Part shown: positions 3,628 to 53,947 of the stretch, in pieces
Position numbering within the stretch: position 1 is the stretch's first letter
How the letters are laid out: every line of letters begins with the position of its first letter
Sequence record: OP870146.1
DNA: 64,000 nucleotides
From: Escherichia phage vB_Eco_F27
Direction: 5' to 3' (one strand)
The notes under the pieces: model-generated
Database searches by the model: none
What the model was told of the DNA's origin: nothing
The model's input: only the letters and a program-made list of their open reading frames with translations
Position numbers and translations under genes: made by a program

Positions 3628-3656
3628 AAATTAAAATGAAGCTCCCGAAGGAGCTT
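3628..3656 (-). terminator. rho-independent terminator (UUCG tetraloop)
   Basis: AAGCUCC-UUCG-GGAGCUU then UCAUUUUAAUUUU on minus transcript; between HNH and glycosyltransferase genes. Confidence 0.55.
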
Positions 3657-4452
3657 AGGACATCCAACACATTTTATAACCTTTGCAGGTTCTGTTAGGA
3701 TTATTTAATGCTTTCAATATATTAGAAGACCCTATATCTAAATACTCCCTTAATTCATAAAGATAGTTAAAATCAATAGTTTCACCTGTTTTTACACTTG
3801 TGATTCTTATAGGCCTTCTTTCATATTTAGATTTATACAACTCTCTAGTCTTAGCTTTAGTTTCTTCCGACCTAGGAGTGTATGGTTTAAATCCTTTTGT
3901 TTTAAATGTTTCCATTCTTGATTTAGTTATTTTATCCTGGTGTTCTTTTGTTTTTACAGGTGCTTTTCGCCCATTCTCCCAAGATAACTTATTGGCCTGT
4001 ATTATTTTATCTATTGCTTCTTGCGTATGAGTTTTACCATAAAATGGATTTAATTCGCCTATACGTTGTGAAGCAATATGTGACATTAATTCTCTTGTTG
4101 CTTTAGTATGTTTTTTACCTTTAAATGGGTTGCCATTTTTAGCAATCCATTCTTTCATAAATCTAGAGTGCTCTTTAGAGAATTCTTGTTTAAGCCAATC
4201 ATAATCTCTAGAATTTCTAGCTCCCATGTAAAAAGCTCTAATAGCCATAAGCATAGAACGGTTCTTATGAATTTTATAAAGCAATAAATGGGCGATAAAA
4301 TGCTCTCTAGGGGTCAATTTAACTAGATTTGATTTAGCATTACTCCCGCCCATAGATTTTGGCAATATATGATGTGTCTCAGTATAATTAGGAATAATGC
4401 TGCGGTTTTTAGCCGCAGCGATAAGTTTATCATAAATTTTACGATAATTCAT
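3655..4452 (-). CDS. HNH homing endonuclease with NUMOD3-type DNA-binding repeats
   Basis: HHILPKSMGGSNAKSNLVKLTPREHFIAH HNH motif; repeated GNPFKGKKHTKATRELMS / NPFYGKTHTQEAIDKI modules; start may be 4467 or 4452. Confidence 0.75.
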   Translation of the reverse strand: MNYRKIYDKLIAAAKNRSIIPNYTETHHILPKSMGGSNAKSNLVKLTPREHFIAHLLLYKIHKNRSMLMAIRAFYMGARNSRDYDWLKQEFSKEHSRFMKEWIAKNGNPFKGKKHTKATRELMSHIASQRIGELNPFYGKTHTQEAIDKIIQANKLSWENGRKAPVKTKEHQDKITKSRMETFKTKGFKPYTPRSEETKAKTRELYKSKYERRPIRITSVKTGETIDFNYLYELREYLDIGSSNILKALNNPNRTCKGYKMCWMS

Positions 4453-6272
4453 TATCCTAGCATCCAATCTTTACGGAGTTCAGGGTCGTTACCCATGAGC
4501 ATTTCAAATAGTTCTTTCCAATTTTCAGGAAGTTTAACTACGTCGTACACAGGGTTTTGAATCATTTCTTTATATTCATCTCGCTGAAGTGAGCCCAATC
4601 CCTTGATGTATCGAATACTATGCTTAGGCAGTGTATCTTTAACTTCTTCATACTCAGCTACAGTATAAAACCATTTTTGAGTTTTGCCAATTTGTGCAAT
4701 AATTACAGGCGTTTTAACAAAGCGAATACGTCCTTGTTCAAACAATTCAGGCCAATTACTAAAGAAAGCAAGCAAAGCCGGATAGATACTTCCAAGACCG
4801 TCATGATCGGCATCGGTCATAATTGCAATATTACGATAGTTCGTATTCTCTGCCTTTTCACCAAGAATAAGACCCGTGATAGCACAGATATCGAAGAGCT
4901 CTTTGTTCTTCATCATATCAGCATATGACATACCCCAGCTATTCATCACCTTACCACGTAATGGGAATCCGCCGTGTAGTTCACGGTCACGAACATCAAT
5001 GAGATAACCAATTGCCGAATCACCTTCTGTTAAGAACAATGTCGTATCTGCATCTTTACCACATTGGTTAGCTTTAATATGCTTATGAACCTTAGCTTTA
5101 GTTGCCTTTTTAGCTGCTTTAGTTTCTGCAGCCTTTTCTGCTGCCAATTTACGAGCTAATGCGGCTTCAACAATAGGCATAATCAAGGCTTCGTTTTTAA
5201 GAAGCGCCTGAGCAATTTTCTTAGCATCTAATTGGATATGATTACGAATATCACCATACGTTGACGTTAAACGTTCTTTAGTCTGAGAATCAAAACGCAT
5301 GTTGCTCATGTCTCTAATAAACATCAACATTGTGAGGCATTCTTTAACACGAGCTTTAGTGACTTCAATACCCTTATATTTCTTTTTAATACCCGGCAAA
5401 AGATGTTCGCAGATATCGTCCATTACACATTCAACATGATGTCCACCATTTTTAGTATGGATGTTATTCACATAAGTTAAATGACGGAAGCCATCTGGTG
5501 ATGTTGTGAATGCTATAGAGACTTTATCATTTTCTTGAATGATGTTATCTTCACCAAATTGTTTAGCAAATCGTTTAAAATTACCATCAACCTTTTTACC
5601 ATTAAATGTGAACTTGATATCAGGATAAACGACTGCCAATGTTTGAAGTCGGTCTAAAGTAATATCTAAATAAATTTGAGATAAATTATGCTCTTCAAAT
5701 GAAGAGAAATCAGGAGTGAAGATTACTTTAGTGCCTTTACCTTTAGATTTCTTAGAAGACCATGATTTGTTTTCCATTCCGTTTGAACAGTTAACAGTGA
5801 TTTCGTTTTCGCCATCTGACGTGATGCCTGTAAACAACGTAGAGAAGATATTAGTTAAACTACTCCCGACGCCGTTCATACCACCAGTCTTGCGTTCAGA
5901 GTCATCACCAAAGTTACCACCAGCCTTTGGAATAGTCCAGGCTGCTACAGGCCCAGGAATTTGTTCACCTGTTTGGTCGGTAACTAAACCTTGAGGAATA
6001 CCACGTCCGTTATCTTCCACCGAAACTTGATTATTTTTAATTTGCACATCAATTTTATTTGCAAACTTAAATGATGTACGAATAGCTTCATCAACCGAGT
6101 TGTCAATAATCTCATCGATTAATTTAACCAGACCAGGAACATATTCAACTTGTTGATATTTACCAAACAAAAAACGCTCATGGGCTTCTTTAGCAGAAGA
6201 ACCAATATACATACCACTACGTTTCTTAATATGTTCTACATCTGACAATACCTTAATTTCATTTTTAATCAT
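4452..6272 (-). CDS. 39: DNA topoisomerase II large subunit (GyrB-like ATPase), unsplit
   Basis: 606 aa, MIKNEIKVLSDVEHIKKRSGMYIGSS..., GHKL ATPase and Toprim motifs; single continuous ORF covering what T4 splits into genes 39 and 60. Confidence 0.9.
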   Translation of the reverse strand: MIKNEIKVLSDVEHIKKRSGMYIGSSAKEAHERFLFGKYQQVEYVPGLVKLIDEIIDNSVDEAIRTSFKFANKIDVQIKNNQVSVEDNGRGIPQGLVTDQTGEQIPGPVAAWTIPKAGGNFGDDSERKTGGMNGVGSSLTNIFSTLFTGITSDGENEITVNCSNGMENKSWSSKKSKGKGTKVIFTPDFSSFEEHNLSQIYLDITLDRLQTLAVVYPDIKFTFNGKKVDGNFKRFAKQFGEDNIIQENDKVSIAFTTSPDGFRHLTYVNNIHTKNGGHHVECVMDDICEHLLPGIKKKYKGIEVTKARVKECLTMLMFIRDMSNMRFDSQTKERLTSTYGDIRNHIQLDAKKIAQALLKNEALIMPIVEAALARKLAAEKAAETKAAKKATKAKVHKHIKANQCGKDADTTLFLTEGDSAIGYLIDVRDRELHGGFPLRGKVMNSWGMSYADMMKNKELFDICAITGLILGEKAENTNYRNIAIMTDADHDGLGSIYPALLAFFSNWPELFEQGRIRFVKTPVIIAQIGKTQKWFYTVAEYEEVKDTLPKHSIRYIKGLGSLQRDEYKEMIQNPVYDVVKLPENWKELFEMLMGNDPELRKDWMLG

Positions 6273-7377: not shown

Positions 7378-7586
7378 TAAGTTGTACCGTTTTCAGTGAT
7401 TTCACGGAAGATACCATAGATAGGCATTTCATCACCGAGTTTTTCGTAAACGTAAACCACTTCTGTGTAGCATAAAAATTCGGTCCAGTTTTTCTGTACA
7501 ACAACTAAATCAGGATTAAACAGAACATCTTCAAACTCATCGATGTTTGAATCAGTAGTTACGTTTTTAATGATTTGACGTTTCAT
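7359..7586 (-). CDS. hypothetical protein
   Basis: ORF with start at MKRQ (7584-7586) preceded by GAGGAG SD and early promoter; upstream 15 codons of listed ORF overlap the promoter. Confidence 0.45.
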
Positions 7587-7610
7587 AATATTCTCCTCTT
7601 GTTTTGATAG

Positions 7611-7644
7611 GTCTATAGTATCATAGACCATAGTTGTTGTACAT
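7611..7644 (-). promoter_or_regulatory. early-type promoter (minus strand)
   Basis: TGTACA-spacer-TACTATAGACC then 5'UTR TATCAAAACAAGAGGAGAA shared with promoter at 55670. Confidence 0.5.
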
Positions 7645-8168
7645 CATTTTAGCAAAATAAAATCAACTTGTTCTGCCAATGAACGTCTAAACATTAATTG
7701 ACAACTTCCGAGGATGAAATCAGGTGCTTCATAGACCGCGATGTAGTATCCTTTAGCTTTCAAGAGTTCAACATCCACCTGGTCATCAAACCATGCATAA
7801 ACCGCGTCAACACTTTCAAATCCAAAATAGAACCCTTGAGCCCAATCTTCGTTCAATTCAAATGTGTGCTCAATTCTATAGTATCTTAAGATATTTTGTT
7901 CAAGGAGTTTGTCTTCATTTACTGTAGGACGATTGGGGACATTATAGTTGTCGCCGTGATGGTAGAAGTTACCTGAGATTATTCCATGTTTATCAAGGAA
8001 CTCCCATGTTTCTTCAGAGTTGTCGGTGCCCGACCAACCGTATGGCGAACGAGGTTCTTTATTCCAAGAGGTTTCCCAAATTCTGACGGCTTTACCGTCT
8101 TCGATAGCAATTCCCGGTAATGATTCACGTTGAGTACAAAAACTACGTTCTACGCGGTAAACTAACAT
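7644..8168 (-). CDS. hypothetical protein
   Basis: 174-aa ORF with own promoter and SD. Confidence 0.5.
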   Translation of the reverse strand: MLVYRVERSFCTQRESLPGIAIEDGKAVRIWETSWNKEPRSPYGWSGTDNSEETWEFLDKHGIISGNFYHHGDNYNVPNRPTVNEDKLLEQNILRYYRIEHTFELNEDWAQGFYFGFESVDAVYAWFDDQVDVELLKAKGYYIAVYEAPDFILGSCQLMFRRSLAEQVDFILLK

Positions 8169-8189
8169 ATTATTCTCCTCTGGTTGATA

Positions 8190-8223
8190 TGGTTATAATA
8201 CAAAAACCAGAGGAGAAGTAAAC
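8190..8223 (-). promoter_or_regulatory. early promoter GTTTAC-N17-TATTAT, spacer complementary to downstream SD
   Basis: Minus strand GTTTAC ttctcctctggtttttg TATTATAACC; spacer CTCCTCTGGTT pairs with 5'UTR AACCAGAGGAG. Confidence 0.6.
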
Positions 8224-8227
8224 AACT

Positions 8228-8647
8228 TTATGCGAAAGCAGCTGGGCTATATTTTTTAATTTGGAATTCAGGAACTACCATGAACTGTCCGGCGAAAACG
8301 ATGTTATAAAGCTTAACACCATCTTCTACCCAACGGTCGCTAATAAATCCGGCGATTTGCTTAGTTTTCCACGGTGTTCCATCAGTTGCCGCAGCAATAG
8401 TGAATTCATGGTCTTTTTCAACAGAAACTGATCTGCATAATCCCCATTTGAACGCTTTTTCTTCTGGTTCAATGAATTGGCTTGAGACATAACCAATGTT
8501 ACCATCAGCGTCACGAACTTTAACTTCGTTACGTCCAAAAACCGGATCACTCACAGAAAGAACTTCAACCAACTTCCCAGCAACTTTAGAGCGAGAAGCA
8601 ACGGATACATATACATAATCACCTGTAGAGAGATTTACAATATTCAT
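8228..8647 (-). CDS. hypothetical protein, tandem paralog family member 1
   Basis: Shares C-terminal motif GFISDRWVEDGVKLYNIVFAGQF with next two ORFs. Confidence 0.55.
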   Translation of the reverse strand: MNIVNLSTGDYVYVSVASRSKVAGKLVEVLSVSDPVFGRNEVKVRDADGNIGYVSSQFIEPEEKAFKWGLCRSVSVEKDHEFTIAAATDGTPWKTKQIAGFISDRWVEDGVKLYNIVFAGQFMVVPEFQIKKYSPAAFA

Positions 8648-8656
8648 AATAATTCC

Positions 8657-9112
8657 TTAAGCTTTACGAGGAGACACGTAGCGAGTGATTTCAGATTCTT
8701 TAACAACTCGGAAGTCACCTAAGAATACGATATTGTATAACTTTTCACCATCTTCAACCCATTGGTCACTAATGAAGCCACACATAGTATCAGTTTTGCT
8801 TGGATAACCGTATTCATCGATGAAGTCAAATTCTTTATCAGTCTGGAATTCAACACCTTTGCAAAGGGCCCATTTGAACTGTGCATTAGGTTCAGTAGAA
8901 GCAAAATGAGCGCTCACATGAGTTTCCAAAAATTTAGGACTTACGTAAGCGTACTGAGTTTCAGTTTTTCCAGAACTAGGAATGATTCTAACTTTAACTT
9001 CTTTAACACGACCAGTACCATTAGTACGAAGTCCTACCACTTCAACTAGACGACCTGCAGCTTTAGAACGAGATGCAGACGATACACGCTTAATTTCACC
9101 AATAGTAATCAT
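8657..9112 (-). CDS. hypothetical protein, tandem paralog family member 2
   Basis: Start taken at MITIGEIKRVSSASRSK (aligns with paralog 1 N-terminus); GFISDQWVEDGEKLYNIVFLGDFRVV motif. Confidence 0.55.
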   Translation of the reverse strand: MITIGEIKRVSSASRSKAAGRLVEVVGLRTNGTGRVKEVKVRIIPSSGKTETQYAYVSPKFLETHVSAHFASTEPNAQFKWALCKGVEFQTDKEFDFIDEYGYPSKTDTMCGFISDQWVEDGEKLYNIVFLGDFRVVKESEITRYVSPRKA

Positions 9113-9140
9113 AATTTCTCTCTCTTTGTTTAAATTGAAT

Positions 9141-9171
9141 TCACTATACTCCATCCATCCTTGGATGTACA
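9141..9171 (-). promoter_or_regulatory. early-type promoter
   Basis: TGTACA-spacer-TATAGT upstream of paralog 2 start. Confidence 0.45.
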
Positions 9172-9174
9172 ACA

Positions 9175-9669
9175 TTAATTAAGGATATTAACCACAGCAC
9201 TACGTGGAACTACACTAAAATCACCTGCATGAACAACGTTCAGAAGTTCAACACCGTCTTCAATCCACTGGTCGGTTACCCATCCACTCACTGGTCCTGC
9301 AAACGGACGTCGAATTGAAACAGCTTTACACAACAAATCAGTAGGCTCAATAGGCTTAATCAGAGTACCGTACATACAAGCGATATCCATATCAATACAG
9401 ATGTCTTTAACGGGTTCTACTTCTTCAATCAACAGTTCAAAGTCGGTGCTTGGAAGGGCGGTAGTAGAAATTGTACCATATGAATTTTTAATTTCTAAGA
9501 ATAACCAAGGGCCTTCAGCTTGTTTGATGAAGTTAACAATAGTGAAACTATTACCTTGAGTGGCACCTAAAATTTCACAAAACTTTTCATAAGCTCGCAC
9601 TGAAGCACCGTACCAGTTGATTTGTTTTTCGTCTTTCAGGATGTAAGTAGCCGTAGTATTGATATTCAT
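9175..9669 (-). CDS. hypothetical protein, tandem paralog family member 3
   Basis: GWVTDQWIEDGVELLNVVHAGDFSVVP motif related to paralogs 1-2. Confidence 0.55.
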   Translation of the reverse strand: MNINTTATYILKDEKQINWYGASVRAYEKFCEILGATQGNSFTIVNFIKQAEGPWLFLEIKNSYGTISTTALPSTDFELLIEEVEPVKDICIDMDIACMYGTLIKPIEPTDLLCKAVSIRRPFAGPVSGWVTDQWIEDGVELLNVVHAGDFSVVPRSAVVNILN

Positions 9670-9700
9670 AATGTTTTTCCTGTTTGGTTAAGATAGAAAG

Positions 9701-9730
9701 ATTATACTCCAACCATCCTTGGTTGTAAAC
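9701..9730 (-). promoter_or_regulatory. early promoter with hairpin in spacer
   Basis: GTTTAC aaccaaggatggttggag TATAAT; about 40-bp cassette nearly identical to 52264-52304. Confidence 0.6.
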
Positions 9731-9735
9731 TGATT

Positions 9736-10413
9736 TTATCGCTGTTTTACACTTAACGGGTCAGGATTCTCAGGGACATCTTCAAGGCCAAGCGCATAAC
9801 GCTGAGCATATTTTAACATCAAAATATCTTTAGCACAATCATGAATACTATCATGGGCAACGAATCCTTTTAGCGTACCCATCGGTAATGGACACATACT
9901 TAATCCTCGTGTCAACGAGTAAGCTTCGATTGCCGTACGAATATCGCGTTGAGCCCAGAATTTAACAGGTTCTAATTTATCAGTATCGATCTCTGGTTCA
10001 AGAACACCTTCATCACGATAGAGGTCACGAATCAAATCGACCAAGATCGGGAAGTCAAAGCTCATACCACGGCACCACATCTGTGATTTCCATTGGTCAA
10101 CTTTATTAGCTCGGCAATAGTCTAAAAAGATTTTAATGCCTTCAAGCGTAGTGACATCGTCTTCAGACGGAGCCAAGTTTTTACGCGCTTCTGCCGACTG
10201 TTCTTTCCACCATTTCATAGTGGATTTAGCGAAAACTCGCTTCCCTTTCTGAGAAGCTAAATTAAATTTAATTCGCTTACCTCGTTGAACAAGTTCTTCA
10301 AATGATTCAACAACTTCAGGGTCGGAATTATATGCAATAACCGCAAGGTCAATAACAGCCGCTTTTGATGTATTGCCGAATGTTTCAAAGTCTATAATAA
10401 CATCAGTGCTCAT
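9736..10413 (-). CDS. dexA: exonuclease A (DnaQ-like 3'-5' exonuclease)
   Basis: MSTDVIIDFETFG...AVIDLAVIAY N-terminus matches recalled T4 DexA; synteny upstream of dda. Confidence 0.8.
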   Translation of the reverse strand: MSTDVIIDFETFGNTSKAAVIDLAVIAYNSDPEVVESFEELVQRGKRIKFNLASQKGKRVFAKSTMKWWKEQSAEARKNLAPSEDDVTTLEGIKIFLDYCRANKVDQWKSQMWCRGMSFDFPILVDLIRDLYRDEGVLEPEIDTDKLEPVKFWAQRDIRTAIEAYSLTRGLSMCPLPMGTLKGFVAHDSIHDCAKDILMLKYAQRYALGLEDVPENPDPLSVKQR

Positions 10414-12793: not shown

Positions 12794-12840
12794 AATATTT
12801 TCCTCTGTCTTACGGACGTTAGGTCATTTAGCTGATAAGC

Positions 12841-12869
12841 TTATAATATCATGCCCTCAGGTAGTGTAC
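12841..12869 (-). promoter_or_regulatory. early-type promoter
   Basis: GTGTAC-N17-TATTATAAGC upstream of Srd-like gene. Confidence 0.5.
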
Positions 12870-12946
12870 ACTCTTTTTTTCGTAAAATGCTTTAATTTTT
12901 TATGTGTTATAATGGTTCTGAGTTCCATCCGGTTATTCCAATTCAG

Positions 12947-13555
12947 TCAGTAACTTACAATAGACAGATTCCAGATTGTATAACGTCCATCCTGAATAAT
13001 AGAATCTACACGCAGTGTAGTCCCTATAGGGAGCATAAATTCACATTCGTCAGATATAAGTCTAGCATTAGACCTTCTTGTCGCTTCAGGGAAAGCTCCA
13101 TTGAACTCACAAGATGGCGCAGCCAGAATCATGTTAAGCATATGTTCACGGAAGTTGAAAGCAAATGGCGCATCTTTGATGCAGAACATATTAAATGTTC
13201 CGTAAAAATTATACGAAGCAAAGTTACGTGCTACACCGAACACTGGGCTGAAGCTCATTACTCTGTCAAATTTAATAATACTACCAATGCCTTTATCATC
13301 GAGTGTGGCCATAGTTTTCTTAGAGATTCCACGATACATTGTCTCAGGAACAGAAGACGTCCAATTTCTACGAACGATTGAACTTAACTCCTGTTGAATA
13401 CAGTCTGGCTTGTTTTCCATACACTGCCAAAGGATGCTTTGTTCATTATCGTTGAATTGACTATCAATTTCGTACTGCAATACATCTTGATATTCGGGGT
13501 TTTGAGCACGACGAACCATTTCTTCAATTTCACACTCGTTATACGGCATAAACAT
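12947..13555 (-). CDS. modA: ADP-ribosyltransferase, ModA-like
   Basis: R-S-E ART signature (MYRG ... SFS ... ECEFMLP); paralog of next gene; synteny. Confidence 0.65.
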   Translation of the reverse strand: MFMPYNECEIEEMVRRAQNPEYQDVLQYEIDSQFNDNEQSILWQCMENKPDCIQQELSSIVRRNWTSSVPETMYRGISKKTMATLDDKGIGSIIKFDRVMSFSPVFGVARNFASYNFYGTFNMFCIKDAPFAFNFREHMLNMILAAPSCEFNGAFPEATRRSNARLISDECEFMLPIGTTLRVDSIIQDGRYTIWNLSIVSY

Positions 13556-13612
13556 TTAGGTTTCTCCTGTGGTTGATAAAGGTATAGTATCATCATCGGA
13601 AGAGTTTGTACA

Positions 13613-14194
13613 CTAAAAATTCAACATTTTCAAATGAATGATTTTGTATAACCGAGATAAAGGGTCATATTCTAAGTCTTCAATTTCTACAATCTCAAAT
13701 CTAGAGATACCTGAGACCATGTACTCTTGTTCAGATTCAATCATATCTAGGACGTCAACACGCTTTTCTTCCATAACATGCTTAGGGTTCTTTCCGGCGA
13801 GTACAATGTTAATCATGTTTTGGTAGTAATCAAAAATGAATGGAGCATTCCTGAGACTAAGAATAGTGTACGTCTGATATTCCCATCTCCCAGAGAATTG
13901 ACGAGCTGTACTGAAATCAGTTGTGAACGATGTTACTCGTCCAGGAGACCAATGGCATCCAACAGAAAGAAGGGAAAGACGTTCTACTTCTTCTGGAGTT
14001 ACACCACGGTAGAGTTCTACTGGTACTGTAGAAGTCATATGCTTACGAACAAGATGGTCTAATTCATAGTGGAAATCTGGGTCTTCCTTAGAATCAGTGC
14101 AAGCCCAGAGAATGTTTTGTTCTTGGCGGGTGAATTTGCTATCAATCAGATTTGTTAGGTATTCACGTTCTTGAAGTTCAGATTGACATGTCAT
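13613..14194 (-). CDS. modB: ADP-ribosyltransferase, ModB-like
   Basis: R-S-E signature (LYRG ... SFT ... ESEQEYMV); paralog of preceding gene. Confidence 0.65.
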   Translation of the reverse strand: MTCQSELQEREYLTNLIDSKFTRQEQNILWACTDSKEDPDFHYELDHLVRKHMTSTVPVELYRGVTPEEVERLSLLSVGCHWSPGRVTSFTTDFSTARQFSGRWEYQTYTILSLRNAPFIFDYYQNMINIVLAGKNPKHVMEEKRVDVLDMIESEQEYMVSGISRFEIVEIEDLEYDPLSRLYKIIHLKMLNF

Positions 14195-14220
14195 GATAGA
14201 CCTCCATTTAAAGATAAGCC

Positions 14221-14250
14221 TATCATAACACGAGAGGAGGGAATGTAAAC
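14221..14250 (-). promoter_or_regulatory. early promoter, spacer complementary to SD
   Basis: GTTTAC attccctcctctcgtgt TATGATAGGC; spacer CCTCCTC vs 5'UTR GGAGG. Confidence 0.55.
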
Positions 14251-14401
14251 TACTTTTTAAGCTTTCCTACTAAAGGTCCATCAGGGACAGGTTGTTCTAA
14301 CATGAATAACGATGCTTTAAAAAGCAATGTCAACCCTTTCACCATTCGATACCATGTCTCAAAGTCTTTTTCCTTGATTTCTAGTAAGAATTTCTCTTTC
14401 A
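14248..14401 (-). CDS. small hypothetical protein
   Basis: 50-codon ORF (MKEKFLLEIKEKDFETWYRM...) not in track; ATGA stop-start overlap with upstream gene. Confidence 0.35.
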
Positions 14402-15421: not shown

Positions 15422-15649
15422 TTAACAACAAATAACTTCTTCAGCATCGTAAGCATTAATTGTTCCTCGAACAAAACGAACACCACCATCATCCCAACGG
15501 ATTTCGGCATTAAATTTGACGTCTTCACCATCCATCATGAATGAGTGTACGACTACATCATCGTAATATCCAAGACCGTATTTCAACGAAACTTCTTGAG
15601 CAATCAAAGCACCTAATGTGTTATTAGGTTTAATCCAACGATTTAACAT
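15422..15649 (-). CDS. hypothetical protein
   Basis: 75-aa ORF. Confidence 0.4.
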   Translation of the reverse strand: MLNRWIKPNNTLGALIAQEVSLKYGLGYYDDVVVHSFMMDGEDVKFNAEIRWDDGGVRFVRGTINAYDAEEVICC

Positions 15650-15710
15650 AATGTTCTCCTCTTGAGTAAGTAAGAATATCTTAACATAGTTTTTAGTGGA
15701 TGTAAACTCT

Positions 15711-16642: not shown

Positions 16643-16840
16643 ATGTTTAAACTTCCATTGTTAATCAACGCTATTAAAGGCAATAAAAAGAAAACTGCTA
16701 TCGCCGCAATAGTTGTAGGTGGCATTATTTCATGGAACTTTGGGATTGCACCATTGTTAGTTGCCCATGGTATTATAGTTCCTTCTGTTCCATTGGATAC
16801 TGTAGTTGATTTGGCCTTTGCTATTATAGGGCTTGTTTAA
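16643..16840 (+). CDS. small hydrophobic (membrane) protein, plus strand
   Basis: 65-aa ORF with strong SD (TAAGGAGATATTATG); predicted TM segments; convergent with primase gene. Confidence 0.45.
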   Translation: MFKLPLLINAIKGNKKKTAIAAIVVGGIISWNFGIAPLLVAHGIIVPSVPLDTVVDLAFAIIGLV

Positions 16841-17859
16841 ATCTTCGAATAACGAGATAATCTCATTTTAGCATGCAACCCACTTGAAATATTCTGTTTC
16901 ATATATTCTAAAATTTCTTGTGGTGTTGCATTTTCTTTTATTACCATATCATTCACGTCCTTTGATCTCCATGGAGCTCGATCCCAGAACATGACACGTT
17001 CGCCTGCATCAACTAATCGCTTCATGCGAGCTATAGTATCTGGATGCCTAGGTTCATTATCCATTACCCATACCCGACGTTCTTTAAATGGTACCACATC
17101 TAAATCTATCGAGCCGCCTGTAATAGCGATTGCATTGGGTATGAATAAACTATCAATAGGGCCTTCCATTACCCAGACGTCCCCTTCCTTAACACGTTCA
17201 ACACCATAAATTTTTGTTGCAGACTCAAACGCTTTAATAGTGATATATTTCTGAGGAGCATCTTTACGAAGTGCACGTCCTTGGAATGACTCAGCCTTCC
17301 CATCTTTATTAAAAATAGGAATCACTAAACGTGGTTCGGGGATCTCTTTCTTATACGTACCAGGTTGAATCTTGTTGACCAATTTAGGCCATTCTAACGT
17401 GAACCATAATCTGTTCCATGATTCTTTAGGAATACACCGAGACTTAACATATTTCACAATAGGATGCTCTTCAGGCAACTTGTCCAGACGAGAACAAGAC
17501 GGCAAAGAATTTATAGTCTTTTTCTCTGGCTCCGGCTTAGCTTCAGGAACCTTTTCAATCTTTGGTTCCATTCTAGCTTTTTCTTTACGAACTTCCATTA
17601 GATATTCGCGATAAAGCTCTTCATCATACTCTTTTAAGTATCCGGAAATTGTATTGTGGTATTGACAATTATAGCAATGTACATTACCAGGAGTACCGCC
17701 ATAATACCATCCGCGAGCTTTCATTGCATCTGTCTGAGAGTCGCCACAAACTGGACAACGAAACGTTAATTTAAATGTGCTTGAATTATTGATTTGTCTA
17801 AAACGAGGGAGGTGAGAAAACGCACGATAAGCAAATTCATTATCTATCCATTCAGCCAT
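16837..17859 (-). CDS. 61: DNA primase
   Basis: 340 aa; N-terminal zinc ribbon CPVCGDS...CYNC and Toprim region; size and synteny as T4 gp61. Confidence 0.9.
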   Translation of the reverse strand: MAEWIDNEFAYRAFSHLPRFRQINNSSTFKLTFRCPVCGDSQTDAMKARGWYYGGTPGNVHCYNCQYHNTISGYLKEYDEELYREYLMEVRKEKARMEPKIEKVPEAKPEPEKKTINSLPSCSRLDKLPEEHPIVKYVKSRCIPKESWNRLWFTLEWPKLVNKIQPGTYKKEIPEPRLVIPIFNKDGKAESFQGRALRKDAPQKYITIKAFESATKIYGVERVKEGDVWVMEGPIDSLFIPNAIAITGGSIDLDVVPFKERRVWVMDNEPRHPDTIARMKRLVDAGERVMFWDRAPWRSKDVNDMVIKENATPQEILEYMKQNISSGLHAKMRLSRYSKI

Positions 17860-18378
17860 AGTATTCTCCAGAGGCCTTAAATTAATAAGGCCATCATATC
17901 ACAACTTATTAATATTTACTTTAATTCGCTTTCTTTTCTTGGAAGGAATTTGTTCTGGACCTTTATTTACGACTGCACCTGTAGTTGTTCCTGATGCAAT
18001 AGCTTGAGGACTACCGCCTGAATCACCGGCAACCAGTACCGCCATAATACCATCCGCGAGCTTTCATTGCATCTGTCTGAGAGTCGCCACAAACTGGACA
18101 ACGAAACGTTAATTTAAATGTGCTTGAATTATTGATTTGTCTAAAACGAGGGAGGTGAGAAAACGCACGATAAGCAAATTCATTATCTATCCATTCAGCC
18201 ATAGTATTCTCCAGAGGCCTTAAATTAATAAGGCCATCATATCACAACTTATTAATATTTACTTTAATTCGCTTTCTTTTCTTGGAAGGAATTTGTTCTG
18301 GACCTTTATTTACGACTGCACCTGTAGTTGTTCCTGATGCAATAGCTTGAGGACTACCGCCTGAATCACCGGCAACCA
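17693..18378. repeat. perfect tandem direct duplication, 2 x 343 bp (17693-18035 = 18036-18378)
   Basis: Direct sequence comparison: unit spans the 5' end of gene 61, the intergenic region and the 3' end of the upstream gene. Confidence 0.9.
18023..18202 (-). pseudogene. duplicated 5' fragment of primase gene 61 (59-codon chimeric ORF)
   Basis: Second copy of primase start MAEWIDNEFAYRAF...CPVCGDS...WYYGG runs into duplication junction and stops after TGCR. Confidence 0.6.
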
Positions 18379-19873: not shown

Positions 19874-19902
19874 TTTAACTCCTTAGTTGATTTGATAGGA
19901 CT

Positions 19903-19932
19903 ACTATACTATAGTCCATCTATAATGTAAAC
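19903..19932 (-). promoter_or_regulatory. early promoter (spackle)
   Basis: GTTTAC-spacer-TATAGTAGTCC; -10 flanked by inverted repeat GGACTA/TAGTCC. Confidence 0.55.
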
Positions 19933-19936
19933 AAGT

Positions 19937-20185
19937 TTATTCTTTTTCGCGAATAATAATTACTTGTTGAGGCTGCTGAGCAGATTTCTTTTCGGCAACG
20001 ATAGACCAAATTAAAGTTCCAATCCAACCAATCATCGTCCAGTTAAAGAGTAAAGATACAAAGAAGATTGCTGTTGTGCTTTTTGTGCCACGAATAAGTG
20101 CGATTACCCAAGGCAACATGTAAATGATGATTGAACCGATACCTGCGATTAAAACTGCTACTGAACTAGCTACGAATAATTCCAT
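19937..20185 (-). CDS. small integral membrane protein
   Basis: 82 aa, two hydrophobic helices. Confidence 0.55.
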   Translation of the reverse strand: MELFVASSVAVLIAGIGSIIIYMLPWVIALIRGTKSTTAIFFVSLLFNWTMIGWIGTLIWSIVAEKKSAQQPQQVIIIREKE

Positions 20186-20212
20186 GTTAATTTCCTCTTG
20201 ATTTGTTATGTT

Positions 20213-20243
20213 TATAGTATCTTATTTTAACTTTGGTGTAAAC
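20213..20243 (-). promoter_or_regulatory. early promoter
   Basis: GTTTAC accaaagttaaaataaga TACTATAAAC upstream of membrane protein gene. Confidence 0.5.
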
Positions 20244-20246
20244 CAA

Positions 20247-20615
20247 TTAATTAAATTTGTTTAAACGTTCAATACACTGGACATAGTTATTCGCGATTTG
20301 TTTCTGGGTAGGCTCTTTACCAGTTGTTTCAACATAGCGAATGAATGCGATTTCAGTAGCCTGTAAGCAATGTTCTTTAACGCGTTGTTCTTTTGACAAC
20401 GCTACGGTATCAGAATCACGATAACGTTGAGCATGGGCATCAGCTTGAATCATTCGATTACCTACAGTAACCGGGTCTTCCACTTCAACTTTAGGTTGGT
20501 CGTACTGTTTAACATTCGGATTGTAAATCAATTGGCCGACGTTATTAGGGATAAAGCCATGGGCACCACATCCGGTTAATCCAAATACCATTGCTAAAGC
20601 GATTAATTTTTTCAT
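20247..20615 (-). CDS. putative lipoprotein
   Basis: Lipobox LTGC after signal peptide. Confidence 0.55.
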   Translation of the reverse strand: MKKLIALAMVFGLTGCGAHGFIPNNVGQLIYNPNVKQYDQPKVEVEDPVTVGNRMIQADAHAQRYRDSDTVALSKEQRVKEHCLQATEIAFIRYVETTGKEPTQKQIANNYVQCIERLNKFN

Positions 20616-20675
20616 TTCAATTTCCTCTGTAGTTGATAGAAAGATAGTAACACAGTATGTGGTGCTTGTAAACAG

Positions 20676-20888
20676 CTATTTTAAACTTTTTCGAAATTTG
20701 CGTTTTTCTTGACGAATCTGTCGTTTAGTCGGACGTACAGCAAATTTAACGAAGTCCACTTTGCCGTGTGGAAACTTTTCAGATGCTTCACAGTCCATCA
20801 TTAGTTCCCATCCTTCCAGAATAAGAGCTTTCCATTGTGTAGTTGATGCAAATTCATATGTTGATGGTTTAAACACAGTTGAATACAT
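20676..20888 (-). CDS. small basic hypothetical protein
   Basis: Start at MYSTVFKP; C-terminal VRPTKRQIRQEKRKFRK. Confidence 0.45.
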   Translation of the reverse strand: MYSTVFKPSTYEFASTTQWKALILEGWELMMDCEASEKFPHGKVDFVKFAVRPTKRQIRQEKRKFRKSLK

Positions 20889-21081: not shown

Positions 21082-21395
21082 ATTTCCTCGCAAAAGGCCC
21101 ATTCAGCGTGATAAACTGTAGCACCTTTAGTATTATTCATTTGAACTACGTCTACCGGAGAAATTACTCGATAGAGACGTGGTTCACCTCCATAAGAGCG
21201 TGCTGCTCGTCCTGCATAAATCTTTGCTAAACCGATATCTTCAGTAAAGAATACACGATCCAAGTTTTTCTTACGTCCAGTTTCAGACAGAACTCCTGTT
21301 TCTTCAGGAGGACAAAGCATGTTTTCGATGTTAGCTGAACTACTTGAACCGTGATAAAAAATCTTAAATTCTGCTTTACAATCGATGGTTTTCAT
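21078..21395 (-). CDS. hypothetical protein with Arr/Tpt1-like ADP-ribosyltransferase motifs
   Basis: FYHGSSS ... RVFFTEDIGLAKIYAGRAA ... GEPRLYRVISP resembles rifampin-ADP-ribosyltransferase (Arr) H-G-S/T, Y-F-T and Y-x-V/I-x-P blocks. Confidence 0.4.
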   Translation of the reverse strand: MKTIDCKAEFKIFYHGSSSSANIENMLCPPEETGVLSETGRKKNLDRVFFTEDIGLAKIYAGRAARSYGGEPRLYRVISPVDVVQMNNTKGATVYHAEWAFCEEI

Positions 21396-21420
21396 TTTGT
21401 TCTCCAGTAGTTGATAGGTC

Positions 21421-21450
21421 TATAATAACACAACTACTGGAGAAGTAAAC
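21421..21450 (-). promoter_or_regulatory. early promoter, spacer complementary to SD
   Basis: GTTTAC ttctccagtagttgtgt TATTATAGACC; spacer CTCCAGTAGTTG is exact complement of 5'UTR CAACTACTGGAG. Confidence 0.65.
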
Positions 21451-21825
21451 TTAAAAACGTAATTTAGATATATCCGCGTTGATTTCGTTTTGGTTTGCGT
21501 CATATGCAATTAAACGAACCGCTTTAGATGGGTCATTCAATGCATAGAAATGATGGAACATTGCTCGAACGATATCACCATTTACGAGTTCTACCTGGAT
21601 AGGAGAACCTTTTTCGAGTTGGAAATGTTCATAAGCTTTGATGGTTCGTAGATAATCAAGTTTTTGATTTCCGGCTCCAACAATTTGTACGATACGTTTG
21701 CCCGTGTTTTCCATACGAGATACAATAGTTTTAGGAGCAAGAATAACGTAGGTTGCCAGCGGAGAAACTACTTCAACAGTTGTGTTTTCGGTGATTGCAG
21801 TAAAAATTGCTTGAGACATATTCAT
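21451..21825 (-). CDS. hypothetical protein
   Basis: 124-aa ORF with own promoter. Confidence 0.5.
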   Translation of the reverse strand: MNMSQAIFTAITENTTVEVVSPLATYVILAPKTIVSRMENTGKRIVQIVGAGNQKLDYLRTIKAYEHFQLEKGSPIQVELVNGDIVRAMFHHFYALNDPSKAVRLIAYDANQNEINADISKLRF

Positions 21826-21854
21826 AATGTTTTCCTCTTGGTTTGTGTAAGTAC

Positions 21855-21884
21855 ATCATATCATGCCTAGAGGAAGATGTAAAC
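21855..21884 (-). promoter_or_regulatory. early promoter, spacer complementary to SD
   Basis: GTTTAC atcttcctctaggcatga TATGAT; spacer TTCCTCT vs 5'UTR AGAGGAA. Confidence 0.55.
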
Positions 21885-21885
21885 C

Positions 21886-21912
21886 ACGAAAGGAGACCGA
21901 AGTCTCCTTTTT
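21886..21912 (-). terminator. terminator-like hairpin after gene 41 (possibly bidirectional)
   Basis: GGAGAC-UUCG-GUCUCC; short U-run on minus transcript, longer T-run on plus side. Confidence 0.45.
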
Positions 21913-26420: not shown

Positions 26421-27136
26421 TAGTCAAGGAATCCTTTAACATAATCAAAATCACGTTCAAACACATGGGCACTTACCATGGTATGAGTATAATCACCAAC
26501 TTCTACACCGCATTCGTTAGCGATATAATGAAGTAATTTTCCTTGGAGATAAAAATCCAACTGCATAACAACAGCACAGTTCTGAGAACGCATATGACAA
26601 TGGGTATAAAGCTTACCATCACGAATATAATAAGTCACTGAGTCAGTACATGGATATTCAAGCGTTTCGTCTGAATCAAGCAAAGCCTGATCAGAACTTT
26701 CTAGAATTTGGAACACAACTCTTCGGGAGTTAGGCTTCTCTTTAAGTTCTTTTAGAAGAGCTGGTAATTGGGCCGCAATGCGAGGACCATAGAAAGTGTT
26801 GAAGTTCGCCGGCAAAACATCTGATTTTGGTTTAGAAATAAATTTAGCGACATTAGGATATGCCTTAAACGCTTCTTCTGCGTTGGTACCACCAGAAATC
26901 ATAAACTTCCAGAAGTCTTCGGCATATTCATAAGAGATGCGGTTAATACGTGGGTCGGTCATTTTGAATGATGATGGAGTGTCAACAACTACTGTCATAG
27001 ACCCAATTTCATTACAACGTCCAATACGAGAATCAGTTACGAATTCCGGGTTTTCTAAAATTTCACGATTGACTGCTTTAAATGCGGTTTGAAAATCTGC
27101 GGCTTTGATATATTTCATTGTGTTATGTTTTCCCAT
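26420..27136 (-). CDS. 42: dCMP hydroxymethylase (thymidylate-synthase superfamily)
   Basis: PCTDSVTYYIRDGKLYTHCHMRSQNCAVVM...HTMVSAHVFE matches the TS-fold active-site block (catalytic Cys, MRS, D); 238 aa close to T4 gp42 size. Confidence 0.8.
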   Translation of the reverse strand: MGKHNTMKYIKAADFQTAFKAVNREILENPEFVTDSRIGRCNEIGSMTVVVDTPSSFKMTDPRINRISYEYAEDFWKFMISGGTNAEEAFKAYPNVAKFISKPKSDVLPANFNTFYGPRIAAQLPALLKELKEKPNSRRVVFQILESSDQALLDSDETLEYPCTDSVTYYIRDGKLYTHCHMRSQNCAVVMQLDFYLQGKLLHYIANECGVEVGDYTHTMVSAHVFERDFDYVKGFLD

Positions 27137-27178
27137 GTTTACCTCAATACAATTTATTATATACTCAATTCGTAAAGC

Positions 27179-27418
27179 TTATTTGAATTTCTTGACAATG
27201 TTGATATAACGTAAAGCTTCAGCATCGATACTTCCAAGAACACTATGAAGAAATGCATCAGCGTAGTATTCCAATTGAACAGGTTCTTTAATCACTTTAG
27301 CCGCTTTAGTTTCAAACAGGCCCATCAGGGCCTTTTTAAGAATTTGTTCATTAGTGTTCAGTTTAATAGTCAAAATCTCTTCATTAAGTTGGTGGTTAAA
27401 AGTTTTTCTAGAAATCAT
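27179..27418 (-). CDS. hypothetical protein
   Basis: 79-aa ORF between Cys-rich enzyme and gene 42. Confidence 0.45.
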   Translation of the reverse strand: MISRKTFNHQLNEEILTIKLNTNEQILKKALMGLFETKAAKVIKEPVQLEYYADAFLHSVLGSIDAEALRYINIVKKFK

Positions 27419-28575
27419 TCCGGGTACCTCAAAGCGTCATCAGAGTTAGTTATATCAATAATAGATATAGAGTTTTCTGCTAACCCGTTTTTAGATAATT
27501 GACGTTTATAATATCTTTCACAATATGTACACGTCGTCCCGCAGATTTCATTAGCACAATCGAAATCTGGATGTCTGAACCACCTTTTTTCTAAAAAGCC
27601 ATCTAACAAAGAGGTTTCAATATTTACTGTATGTGAAAACTCGGTCTCATTTTCAAGAGTGAAAATAGTCTCTAAAGGCTTCCACAGTTCTAACAAATTA
27701 CCTTCAAACTTTTCAGAAGCGTATGCTTCAAGAACTTTCAAAATGTAGTCTGTGCTACCTGTACGTCCTGAAACTTTGAATTGAGTGATACCAATATCAT
27801 TATAAAGTTTCAAATCTTGAGGACGAACAAAACGAGTTCTCAACCAGTTAAATGGGTCTGTATCACGAGCTTTAATGCAGTGTTGCATTGGGTATCCGTT
27901 TAAGGATTTAGCATCATCAGCTGTAACATCAGTACTATGGAAAATATAGCAAGAGTCACGATAGCTACAATGTGTTGTATACCCTTTACCAGCATTAGAA
28001 CAGAACTCATTTACAAGAACTTCAAATATTATATTGTTCTTATTGCAAAACTCTGCTGCACGCTTCAGGAAAGAAACTGAACGGTTCTTATGAATTCCAC
28101 AGCAGACCTTTTTGATATTATATTGGTCATGCAAGTATTTGATTTGAGTTACAGCATCGACATGTAGAATTGTTGAAACTTCAATCTCAATGTCTTTATT
28201 GACTTCACGAACAATTTCCATAACAACAGGGTTAGCGATAGTAATACGCCATACGCCTATTGACCAAAGATACTGAACATAATCCTGAATAGCTTTCTTC
28301 TTCCACTCAACTAGTTCTCTTTTTGAACCAGGATTTATCGTGTTGAGTGTATAGTTAAAGCAAATACCTAATTCGTTACAACGTTTAACGTAATCTTCTA
28401 ACATCTTTTTGTCAACGTCAGGAAGCCTAAAATCAGGTCTGGCTGCTACAAAAGCCATTTCTCTTGTAGAGCCGTATACTTCGTTTATCAAGCTATTAGG
28501 ATAAGTTTTATTGAGCTCTACGATTTTATCAAGAAGAGCTAAATCAAAATTCGTTCCGATTTTAAAAGTATTCAT
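27415..28575 (-). CDS. Cys-rich hypothetical enzyme (possible Fe-S/metal cluster protein)
   Basis: 386 aa; FCSNAGKGYTTHCSYRDSC and C-terminal CANEICGTTCTYC (Cx4Cx3Cx2C); faint resemblance to peptidase-U32/TIM-barrel family. Confidence 0.45.
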   Translation of the reverse strand: MNTFKIGTNFDLALLDKIVELNKTYPNSLINEVYGSTREMAFVAARPDFRLPDVDKKMLEDYVKRCNELGICFNYTLNTINPGSKRELVEWKKKAIQDYVQYLWSIGVWRITIANPVVMEIVREVNKDIEIEVSTILHVDAVTQIKYLHDQYNIKKVCCGIHKNRSVSFLKRAAEFCNKNNIIFEVLVNEFCSNAGKGYTTHCSYRDSCYIFHSTDVTADDAKSLNGYPMQHCIKARDTDPFNWLRTRFVRPQDLKLYNDIGITQFKVSGRTGSTDYILKVLEAYASEKFEGNLLELWKPLETIFTLENETEFSHTVNIETSLLDGFLEKRWFRHPDFDCANEICGTTCTYCERYYKRQLSKNGLAENSISIIDITNSDDALRYPE

Positions 28576-44132: not shown

Positions 44133-44431
44133 GGCTTAATTTCCTTCGCAATTGAACAGAAGATACCACGGTCACAAAGCATTTCACCAATTTCTGGATA
44201 TTTGATTGAACGGTACCAAACATCCAGGCTTGAAACTCTGGTTATCTGTACGGCATTACCATTGACAGAATAGTACTGGTCAACCTTAATTTCTTTATCT
44301 TCAATTGTCATTTTATTTTCCTCTATAGTAGATGGTTTAATCTTAACACATCTATTGAGGATGTAAACTGTTTTATGAAAATATTTTTGATTTGAGAGGG
44401 GCACAAGGAGATAGTGAAGTGAAGATTCCAA
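44129..44431 (-). CDS. hypothetical protein
   Basis: ORF, start uncertain (MESS or MTIEDKEIKV). Confidence 0.4.
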   Translation of the reverse strand: MESSLHYLLVPLSNQKYFHKTVYILNRCVKIKPSTIEENKMTIEDKEIKVDQYYSVNGNAVQITRVSSLDVWYRSIKYPEIGEMLCDRGIFCSIAKEIKP

Positions 44432-45882: not shown

Positions 45883-47158
45883 TGGTGTTTAACCCTATGC
45901 ATGATTTCTTTATTTTTACCGAGATTAAATCCGCGTTCGTTCGGATTTCCCAAATAACCACATGTTCTTCTTATTGTGTTCATCTTTTTAGGATCAGTTT
46001 CTCCACAAATAGAACAAACAAATCCGTTTTCAGTAGGAGTCATTTCATGGGTACTTCCACATGTAAAACATTTATCTACTGGCATATTAACACCAAAATA
46101 ATCTAAATGTTGTGCAGCATAATCCCATACGGCCTCAAGGCCTTTCAAGTTATTTTTCATATCAGGAAGTTCAACATAAGAAATGTGACCACCTGTCGCA
46201 ATGAAATGATATGGCGCTTCACGAGAAATCTTTTCAAACGGAGTAATATTTTCTTCTACTGAAACATGGAAACTGTTAGTGTACCAACCTTTATCGGTAA
46301 CATCTTTTACGCTTCCATATTTTTCTGTATCAAGTTTACAGAAGCGGTAACAAAGGTTTTCAGCAGGAGTAGAATACAAACTAAAAGCAAATCCAGTTCT
46401 TTCGGACCACTGTTTAAGATGAGCATTCATTTTAGTTAAAATTTCTTGCCCAATATCACGACCGACAAGAATATTCAATTCGTGAATACCAATGTATCCT
46501 AAAGACACTGAACTTCTACCGTTTTTAAATAACTCAATTATGTCGTCATCAGGTTTAAGACGAACCCCGAATGCACCTTCTTGGTAAAGAATAGGAGCAA
46601 CAGTCGCTTTAACACCCTTTAAAGAACTAATTCTACACATCAAGGCTTCAAAACACAGATCCATTCGTTCATTAAACAATTCGATAAATTTCTGTTCATT
46701 GAACTGTGTTCCAATATAAGAATCTAATGCGATACGAGGAAGATTCAGTGTTACAACACCAAGATTATTACGTCCATCAAGAATTTCATTACCGGTTGAA
46801 TCTTTCCACACACTCAAAAAACTGCGGCAACCCATTGGAGAAACAGGAATAGATGAGCCGGTGATAGCTTTATTGTTCTTAGCTGAAATAATATCAGGAT
46901 ACATTCTTTTGCTTGCACATTCTAACGCAAGTTGTTTAATATCATAGTTCGGATCATCTTTATAAAGATTAACACCTTCTTCAACAAACATAACAAGTTT
47001 AGGAAAAATAGGAGTTATTCCATCACGACCAAGGCCTTTAATGCGGTTTTTAAGAATTGCCTTCTGAATCATTCGTTCAGTCCAGTCAGTTCCCGTACCA
47101 AATGTAATTGTTACAAAAGGCGTTTGACCGTTTGAACTGAAAAGTGTATTTACTTCAT
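45879..47158 (-). CDS. nrdD: anaerobic ribonucleoside-triphosphate reductase, exon 2
   Basis: C-terminal glycyl-radical motif RRTCGYLG and Zn site CFTCGS...CSICG; joins exon 1 to give 605 aa. Confidence 0.88.
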
Positions 47159-53945: not shown

Positions 53946-53947
53946 AA

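Follow-up and report, generated by a model that had tools for sequence, protein, structure and literature searches.

Immediately 5' of motB.1, at ~9.7 kb of the window (the whole 64,000-nucleotide stretch of Escherichia phage vB_Eco_F27 DNA analyzed here), lies a 37-mer, AGATAGAAAGATTATACTCCAACCATCCTTGGTTGTA, that has exactly two copies, at 9691 to 9727 and 52268 to 52304, where shuffled sequences gave an expectation of 0; a repeat search of the window placed the full exact repeat at 41 nt, spanning 9687 to 9727 and 52264 to 52304. The copy at ~52.3 kb precedes nrdC.3 (gene names follow the RB69 annotation), and all genes around the repeats are on the minus strand. The window shares 96 to 98.5% identity with RB69-like coliphages (genus Mosigvirus). 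Two further pairs are present. The second, TATTATAGACCTATCAAAACAAGAGGAGAA, is exact on the minus strand at 55647 to 55676 and carries one mismatch at 7591 to 7620 (0 expected), and its copies precede a cef-like gene and a 72-aa open reading frame (ORF). The third is a 12-mer, CAACTACTGGAG, found on the minus strand at 21402 to 21413 and 53897 to 53908, upstream of a 105-aa ORF and nrdC.8, and also on the plus strand at 21431 to 21442 (0.19 expected by chance).

The original prediction had described these three pairs as near-identical repeats, and all three were located within a few bases of where it had placed them. The positions first given for pair 1, 9686 to 9726, were 1 to 5 nt off. Its description of pair 3 as a 5' untranslated region (UTR) stood in part: the repeat exists, but CAACTACTGGAG is a stem arm containing the Shine-Dalgarno sequence (SD) and not simply a 5' UTR, since the plus-strand match at 21431 to 21442 makes it one arm of a 14-bp inverted repeat. 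The flanking coding sequences are unrelated, as had been proposed; BLASTP of motB.1 against nrdC.3 gave an E value of 1.5, and the proteins downstream of pairs 2 and 3 gave no match. A further pair 1-like copy, 73% identical, was recovered at 9129 to 9169 in the repeat search, which revealed the three pairs to be the most similar members of a larger family, dispersed along the window and with nine or more copies in each sub-alignment.

Cassette anatomy and proposed promoter identity

Read along the minus strand, the family members are cassettes of ~60 bp with a common layout: an A-rich stretch, a -35 element (G)TTTAC(A/T), a spacer of 16 to 17 nt, a TATAAT-like -10 whose hexamers fit TAnnnT, a leader of ~20 to 23 nt, an SD of the GGAG/GAGG type, and the ATG of the downstream gene. 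The window contains 23 of them, every one (23/23) on the minus, transcribed and coding strand and immediately 5' of a gene. All matches of a profile HMM seeded with 18 copies lay on the minus strand: 22 reached E<1e-3, and one more had E=0.054. Five of them, the last-named and four of the 22, were absent from the seed. Most cassettes also contain an inverted repeat, and the resulting stem-loops take three layouts. In class A the stem arms flank the -10, the 3' arm is the SD, and the anti-SD follows directly after the -35; in class B the -10 sits in the loop or an arm of a shorter hairpin; and in class C, to which both pair 1 copies (9.7 and 52.3 kb) belong, a 6-bp hairpin occupies the -35/-10 spacer. 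The cassettes and one associated terminator are as follows (z, folding score against dinucleotide shuffles; Pe, predicted early promoter of RB69).

7586 to 7651, minus: class B cassette, pair 2, upstream of the cef-like gene (ATG 7586); -10 within the GGTCTATGATACTATAGACC hairpin; RB69 Pe:6863
8167 to 8234, minus: class A cassette upstream of a motB-like gene; 13-bp stem, z=-5.6; RB69 Pe:7443
9115 to 9182, minus: class C cassette upstream of motB; CATCCAAGGATGGATG hairpin; RB69 Pe:8387
9673 to 9737, minus: class C cassette upstream of motB.1 (ATG 9669); TTTACA-17-TATAAT; 6-bp hairpin CAACCAAGGATGGTTG in the -35/-10 spacer; HMM E=1e-8; RB69 Pe:8947
12824 to 12880, minus: cassette, HMM; RB69 Pe:12088
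13555 to 13618, minus: cassette, HMM; a 503-bp EP02SG indel has one breakpoint 29 bp away
14200 to 14260, minus: cassette, HMM; the same 503-bp EP02SG indel has its second breakpoint 49 bp away
15649 to 15709, minus: cassette, HMM
19880 to 19940, minus: class B cassette, HMM
20187 to 20250, minus: weak cassette without a stem, HMM E=0.054
20616 to 20681, minus: cassette, HMM; indel breakpoint 15 bp away
21393 to 21451, minus: class A cassette, pair 3; 14-bp stem TTCTCCAGTAGTTG/CAACTACTGGAGAA encloses the -10, 3' arm is the SD, z=-5.6; downstream boundary of a 415-bp module
21828 to 21891, minus: cassette, upstream boundary of the 415-bp module; stem TCTTCCTCT/AGAGGAAAA
43193 to 43250, minus: chimeric cassette at the site of RB69ORF075c in relatives; crossover at the -35 (TACAA); RB69 Pe:42515 and Pe:42816
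44311 to 44378, minus: class A cassette; bulged stem, z=-2.8
49885 to 49926, minus: partial cassette, promoter only; HMM E=1e-4
52250 to 52313, minus: chimeric class C cassette, exact twin of the motB.1 cassette, upstream of nrdC.3 (ATG 52249); 5' flank from the nrdC.6/nrdC.5 cassette, 3' flank from the nrdC.5/nrdC.3 cassette
53889 to 53953, minus: mosaic cassette, pair 3, upstream of nrdC.8; carries an orphan stem arm
55367 to 55432, minus: cassette upstream of nrdC.10, downstream boundary of a 278-bp module; crossover core ATGTTATTATAGACCTATC
55642 to 55708, minus: cassette, pair 2, upstream of the 72-aa ORF; upstream boundary of the 278-bp module
58285 to 58352, minus: class B cassette; 13-bp stem with the -10 in the loop, z=-5.5
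58736 to 58802, minus: class A-like cassette, HMM and alignment
58805 to 58831, minus: intrinsic terminator GCCCCTTCCGAAAGGTTGGGGCTTTTT, immediately 5' of the cassette at 58736 to 58802
62389 to 62453, minus: class A cassette; 14-bp stem, z=-4.6; upstream gene replaced in ECO26.1 and TH12

The sequence features of T4-type early promoters are all found here: a GTTTAC -35, A-rich sequence upstream of it, a TATAAT-like -10, and a position 5' of early genes. In phiEC1, a complete related genome, we counted 48 cassettes, 48/48 on the early-gene strand, clustered at 0 to 33, 53 to 87, and 134 to 161 kb with only one inside the late block of 87 to 134 kb. For RB69 itself, 58 early promoters have been predicted (Nolan et al. 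2006, PMC1524935, Additional file 3), and the orthologous sites of the window cassettes coincide with these predictions by coordinates; the matching promoters include Pe:6863, 7443, 8387, 8947, 12088, 42515, 51019, 53683, 55018, 55296, 57689, 58138, and 61376. Among them, Pe:8947 is the 9.7-kb site, Pe:51019 together with Pe:52042 flanks nrdC.5, and Pe:42515 together with Pe:42816 flanks ORF075c. Because the extended T4-type early consensus, strand exclusivity, fixed geometry, and published predictions agree, we infer that the cassettes are T4-type early promoters that would be used by host RNA polymerase with sigma-70 right after infection. The suggestion that the repeats are modular regulatory cassettes was thus well founded: a GTTTAC-N16/17-TATAAT-type promoter is joined to an SD and ATG, strand-exclusive and gene-proximal, with RB69 orthologues that are published predicted early promoters. 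The GGAG and A-rich leader may also correspond to the published description of RegB/S1 targets.

A generic sigma-70 and terminator scan of the window returned 48 promoter-like sites against 46.8 expected, and such a scan cannot discriminate in AT-rich DNA; Rfam at gathering thresholds gave zero matches over the whole window. A scan of IMG/VR for the 27-nt core recovered only four DNA stretches, from three related contigs, contributing a few variants but no new context.

Stem-loops and the ribosome-binding site

Folding of the interval from the -35 to the ATG against dinucleotide shuffles gave a mean z of -1.4 over the 23 cassettes (p ~0.006). The signal is uneven: z was below -2 in 7/23, four cassettes have perfect 13- to 14-bp stems with z below -4.6, and ~6/23 have no significant stem. 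Across the relatives, class A comprises several paralogous families whose arm sequences differ yet stay complementary. In the class A alignment 84.5% of cells pair, compared with 41 to 56% in slid registers, both sides change in 8 of the 14 pairs, and the observed values were reached by 0/500 shuffles; these pairing and covariation counts are conservative because two families stand one column out of register in the MAFFT alignment. In a test independent of that alignment, each cassette's own 5' and 3' arms paired better than arms swapped between cassettes (permutation p = 5e-5). Folding energies are equal for the two strands, sense and antisense (p = 0.88), and the sense strand holds 58 G.U against 34 A.C pairs, a difference that at most weakly favors a structure at the RNA level, the sequences being not independent of one another.

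The geometry of class A places the promoter inside the stem-loop, and the predicted accessibility of the SD differs with the origin of the transcript. The predicted probability that the SD is unpaired is 0.25 in read-through RNA and 0.58 in RNA from the cassette's own promoter; for class A the corresponding values are ~0.00 and 0.6 to 0.75. Read-through RNA arriving from upstream would fold into the 13- to 14-bp stem and hide the ribosome-binding site, whereas RNA started at the cassette's own promoter would lack the 5' arm and so be translatable. Folding predicts that the class A stem masks the SD in read-through RNA in this way, and covariation supports the prediction.

Gene gain and loss between cassettes

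From an alignment of the window to eight relatives (RB69, JK45, phiEC1, TH58, ECO26.1, TH12, BEU50, and EP02SG) we listed 34 indels or replacements that are 60 bp or longer. The site of the ~52.3-kb cassette is one of them. In RB69 and five other relatives, nrdC.5 (~1 kb) lies between two cassettes that share a 27-bp core, TACAACCAAGGATGGTTGGAGTATAAT; the window has a single cassette there, at 52250 to 52313, with the 5' flank of the upstream copy and the 3' flank of the downstream copy. Judged by these flanks, the 52,264 to 52,304 copy is the chimeric scar of an nrdC.5 deletion between the flanking cassettes. The nrdC.5-less junction occurs in 20/155 related records, and elsewhere the match stops at the cassette edge. 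RB69ORF075c (~296 bp) similarly lies between two cassettes in six relatives and is replaced in the window by one chimera whose crossover is at the -35, with a homology of only ~5 bp; ~10/161 records contain the ORF075c-less junction as a single piece.

At two other loci it is the window that holds the additional module. The 278-bp module with the 72-aa ORF, between the cassettes at 55642 to 55708 and 55367 to 55432, is missing from five of six compared relatives, which have one chimera with its crossover in ATGTTATTATAGACCTATC, and is present in 51/171 records. The 415-bp module between the cassettes at 21828 to 21891 and 21393 to 21451 is deleted in EP02SG, where the crossover lies in the SD region, and is present in 132/159 records. 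Related events were seen at the terminator and at a class A cassette: TH58 carries a 594-bp insertion between direct repeats of the terminator at 58805 to 58831, which is duplicated there, and in ECO26.1 and TH12 the gene upstream of the cassette at 62389 to 62453 is replaced, with homology resuming exactly at the -35.

The original prediction had proposed that the cassettes could act as recombination substrates for gene shuffling and that comparing cassette-flanked genes among related phages would bear on this. That comparison found single chimeras where other genomes hold two cassettes and a gene, at four loci (nrdC.5, RB69ORF075c, and the modules of 278 and 415 bp) that are all polymorphic among ~155 to 170 related genomes, which supports the proposal. 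Nor are the copies a peculiarity of the window, given the 48 spread through the phiEC1 genome, and they are tied to variable gene content.

The cassettes also appear to exchange sequence over long distances. Alleles of the nrdC.3 cassette differ by a clustered 4-nt change right after the -10, GAATC in six genomes and CTTTC in RB69, TH58, and the window, and the CTTTC allele is exactly the sequence of the motB.1 cassette 42 kb away, which points to gene conversion between the two. The exact 41-nt identity of pair 1 would then have arisen because the nrdC.3 cassette was converted to the motB.1 sequence and nrdC.5 was deleted. Elsewhere the two ends of a cassette have different affinities: the 53944 and 21449 cassettes are 44% identical in their 5' halves and 90% in their 3' halves, and the 62445 and 58792 cassettes are 88% identical in the 5' half and 40% in the 3' half. 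The 5' and 3' halves of cassettes evidently reassort.

Breakpoint counts give a more restrained picture of how often cassettes are involved. Indel breakpoints fall at 10/22 cassette junctions and 24/94 other junctions (odds ratio 2.4, p = 0.07; p = 0.13 when only spacers of at least 40 nt are used), so that enrichment at cassette junctions is only a trend. For the five homology-bearing junctions, rough arithmetic gives p ~1e-4 against a uniform null and ~0.08 against an intergenic-only null. Some two thirds of the indel events lie away from any cassette, among them the insertion of an HNH endonuclease at 3664 to 4451, an nrdD insertion at 47158 to 48205, a repeat at the 3' ends of coding sequences, and the tk.2-tk.4 region. 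Cassettes are one indel route among several. We considered homing endonucleases as a cause of the cassette-bounded indels and rejected them, as they explain the insertions at 3664 to 4451 and 47158 to 48205 but not the cassette junctions. Tandem gene duplication was likewise rejected as the source of the repeats; it is plausible only for the neighbors motB.1 and motB, whose proteins are 44% identical over 36 aa, and leaves the 42-kb pair unexplained.

Interpretation and comparison with known systems

The reading we favor, at a probability of roughly 0.85, takes the repeats to be early-promoter cassettes of the T4 type in an RB69-like Mosigvirus, equivalent to promoter-early stem-loops (PeSLs) and serving as homology for recombination. 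Because the cassettes are many, near-identical, co-oriented, and placed between small non-essential genes, they offer homologies of 5 to ~30 bp to the very active homologous recombination of the phage. Three outcomes are seen directly in the sequence comparisons: a gene between two cassettes is deleted or inserted with one chimeric cassette left behind, a gene upstream is replaced up to the cassette edge, and short-tract gene conversion keeps distant cassettes identical.

Much of the conserved sequence is -35, -10, and SD, and the breakpoint enrichment is not significant, as would be expected if promoter and ribosome-binding-site consensus alone explained the likeness and the exact repeats were coincidental, with no role in rearrangement. 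Such functional convergence seems very improbable, however, when non-consensus positions are identical too (41/41 nt in pair 1, spacer and leader included), when chimeric cassettes occur at four independent loci exactly where relatives hold two cassettes and a gene, and when a clustered allele switch matches a paralogue 42 kb away. The positions of the crossovers, in four different sub-elements (SD region, -35, -10 core, and spacer hairpin) and at no single site, bear on another possibility, that a dedicated site- or structure-specific system such as a stem-loop-binding protein, or endonuclease VII acting on cruciforms, uses the inverted repeats as DNA. The stem sequences differ between cassettes and so provide no common recognition sequence, we noticed no integrase-like gene among the RB69 annotations for the region, and the excess of G.U pairs leans toward RNA; a dedicated system is in our judgment rather improbable, even though endonuclease VII (gene 49) is encoded in the window, the ORF075c crossover has very little homology, the covarying stems fold equally well in sense and antisense, as a DNA-level palindrome would, and Arbiol et al. 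(PMC2839356) raised the possibility as well. It is scarcely credible that the cassettes are small MITE-like mobile elements transposing with the adjacent gene. Dispersal, inverted repeats, and an association with variable genes would suit such elements, but the cassettes keep a single orientation and a fixed distance to the ATG, the copies differ in their inverted repeat, which is internal, neither target-site duplications nor terminal inverted repeats are visible in base-level views of the junctions, and no transposase was found in the window region.

What the stem-loops do is a partly separate matter. In the original PeSL proposal they are mainly terminators or attenuators of upstream transcription, with masking of the ribosome-binding site secondary, and one RB49-type stem-loop did reduce expression of a downstream lacZ to the extent that rrnB T1 did (Arbiol et al., PMC2839356), although a lacZ reporter cannot separate termination from translational masking. 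A true terminator lies just upstream of the cassette at 58736 to 58802; this separate hairpin is the only one with the form of a G+C-rich stem followed directly by a U-run. No U-run was found 3' of any stem of classes A, B, or C; beyond the 3' arm the sequence continues with ...GGAGAACAAAATG or ...AACAAAATG, or with the leader, so these stems are not canonical intrinsic terminators. The constant placement of the SD in the class A 3' arm, with the anti-SD right after the -35, is moreover expected for masking and unneeded for termination. We therefore regard termination or attenuation as an unlikely main role, if one to be taken seriously.

Within the early-promoter cassette reading, we put forward tentatively, as a possibility held at less than even odds, that class A cassettes are self-insulating portable expression units. 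Each gene would be translated only from its own early promoter, read-through from neighbors would stay silent, expression would be position-independent and immediate-early, and conversion between distant cassettes would keep the family homogeneous enough for recombination. If true, the SD-masking subclass supplies a testable idea of how shuffled genes could be expressed correctly at any landing site. More generally, these data extend the PeSL mechanism to the RB69 group (Mosigvirus), a large and much-sampled set of therapeutic and model coliphages, and they provide base-resolved cases, with allele frequencies in ~150 genomes, of short regulatory repeats driving the gain and loss of accessory genes. 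For annotators, they offer an explanation of the recurrent intergenic repeats of 40 to 60 bp in T4-type genomes and of the gene-content differences found there.

Several known systems share parts of this design. As with Botstein-Campbell linkers, lambdoid morons, and integron cassettes, genes here move with or land beside expression signals, and conserved short sequences at module borders target exchange. Integrons differ in having a dedicated integrase and attC sites, while in the window no recombinase is apparent and crossovers fall at varied points of ordinary homology; an integron reading was rejected on the lack of an integrase, the fixed orientation, and the fixed ATG distance. In T4, genes e, soc, 49, and I-TevI have a late promoter within a hairpin, and in the longer early transcripts this hairpin sequesters the SD (review, PMC3014915). 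Class A shares the geometry: the promoter falls within the 5' arm or loop, the 3' arm includes the SD, and a transcript begun at the internal promoter lacks the inhibitory arm. The T4 promoter is however a late TATAAATA (gp55) promoter that gives late-only expression, whereas that of the window is an early sigma-70-type GTTTAC-N16/17-TATAAT, and the window design recurs at many genes as a repeated cassette in which masking is predicted. Nolan et al. (2006, PMC1524935) listed the same sites as those of our cassettes but treated them as promoters only; the words "hairpin" and stem-loop are absent from that work, and a role in recombination was not proposed.

The closest parallel is the PeSL, and the phenomenon itself has already been published under that name (Arbiol et al. 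2010, PMC2839356; Comeau et al. 2014, PMC4122927). PeSLs were defined in RB49 and phi1 as a repeated early promoter, stem-loop, and SD in hyperplastic regions, where they mediate ORF deletion, insertion, and replacement that leave a chimeric element, and mini-circles were detected by PCR (PMC2839356); they were then extended to PST/T4, with the consensus TTTACW-N17-TAYWAT, and to nt-1/KVP40 (PMC4122927). At the level of sequence, the window cassettes show every feature by which PeSLs are recognized, namely promoter, stem-loop, copy number, and cassette-bounded indels. They are the same composite of early promoter, stem-loop, and SD, repeated intergenically in hyperplastic regions; the stem may occupy the -35/-10 spacer, span the -10, or sit upstream; where one phage has a gene between two elements, a close relative has one chimeric element; the consensus of PST/T4 agrees with that of the window; and the ~6/23 stemless cassettes are comparable to the "degraded" PeSLs of Comeau et al. 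(PMC4122927). The host group differs, being RB69-like Mosigvirus, for which no PeSL analysis was found in the literature searched. Mini-circles and promoter and terminator/attenuator activity belong to the description of PeSLs; for the window cassettes promoter function is predicted. RB49 stems are of a G-run/C-run type, which those of the window are not; a subclass in the window pairs the SD with an anti-SD right after the -35; and the window data add evidence for conversion between distant cassettes. No new field is opened here, since the concept was published in 2010 and 2014; what is modestly new beside those systems is the covarying SD-masking design of class A, the evidence for conversion between distant cassettes, and the population frequencies of four cassette-bounded modules.

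Insertions, deletions and repeats in relatives

The relative TH58 carries a 594-bp insertion (positions 26849-27444 of the TH58 stretch) at a site corresponding to window 58805-58831, where the window has an intrinsic terminator, and direct repeats of this terminator lie on both sides of the insert. Because a late-promoter motif (TATAAATA) stands at the start of the insert, it appears from its sequence to be a late-expressed module that would have entered through recombination in the terminator repeat.

Two other variable sites involve causes other than the cassettes, the repeated early-promoter units of about 60 bp. A 282-bp indel in JK45 (JK45 stretch 8530-8813; window 50312-50345) is homology mediated and not cassette mediated: a repeat of ~34 bp (…CTACGAGAATATTTTAAATGA), located where two coding sequences have their 3' ends, bounds it. 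The tk.2-tk.4 region (window 59983-60586), which differs in 4 of 6 relatives through indels of 164 to 410 bp and lies >1 kb from the nearest cassette, is a hypervariable spot with a cause other than cassettes. The record of JK45 (MK962757) is labeled Tequatrovirus, which looks inconsistent with its ~97% sequence identity over 24 kb to the RB69-like window.

In the whole genome of phiEC1, class B, in which the -10 element lies in the loop or arm of a shorter hairpin, includes a subfamily with a near-identical hairpin (TAGGACTATGTTATAGTAGTCCTA) at no fewer than 8 sites genome-wide, with the -10 element in the loop.

Duplication at primase gene 61

The 5' end of primase gene 61 lies in a tandem duplication at window 17692-18378 (343 bp, 2.0 copies, 100% identical), which left a truncated second copy of the gene:

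16837-17859, primase gene 61, full length
18023-18202, truncated N-terminal gene 61 copy, 59 aa

The window alignments break at 18035 for all relatives, and the duplication could be either a very recent event or an assembly artifact.

Homing-endonuclease-like insertions

RB69ORF003c and gene 39 are separated by a 786-bp insertion, which RB69, phiEC1, EP02SG, and TH12 lack. It holds an open reading frame that, judging by its motifs, looks like a putative homing endonuclease:

3655-4467, minus strand, ORF of 270 aa in which NPF(Y/K)GK motifs recur alongside an HNH-type motif (ETHHILPKSMGG...)

A second insertion, of 1046 bp (window 47158-48205), interrupts nrdD; it is probably an intron that carries a gene for a homing endonuclease. 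JK45 and TH58 have the insertion, and RB69, phiEC1, ECO26.1, and TH12 lack it. In JK45 an I-TevII-type homing endonuclease is annotated there, and a 42-nt stretch of the window at ~48079-48120 has 97.6% identity to homing-endonuclease genes of unrelated phages.
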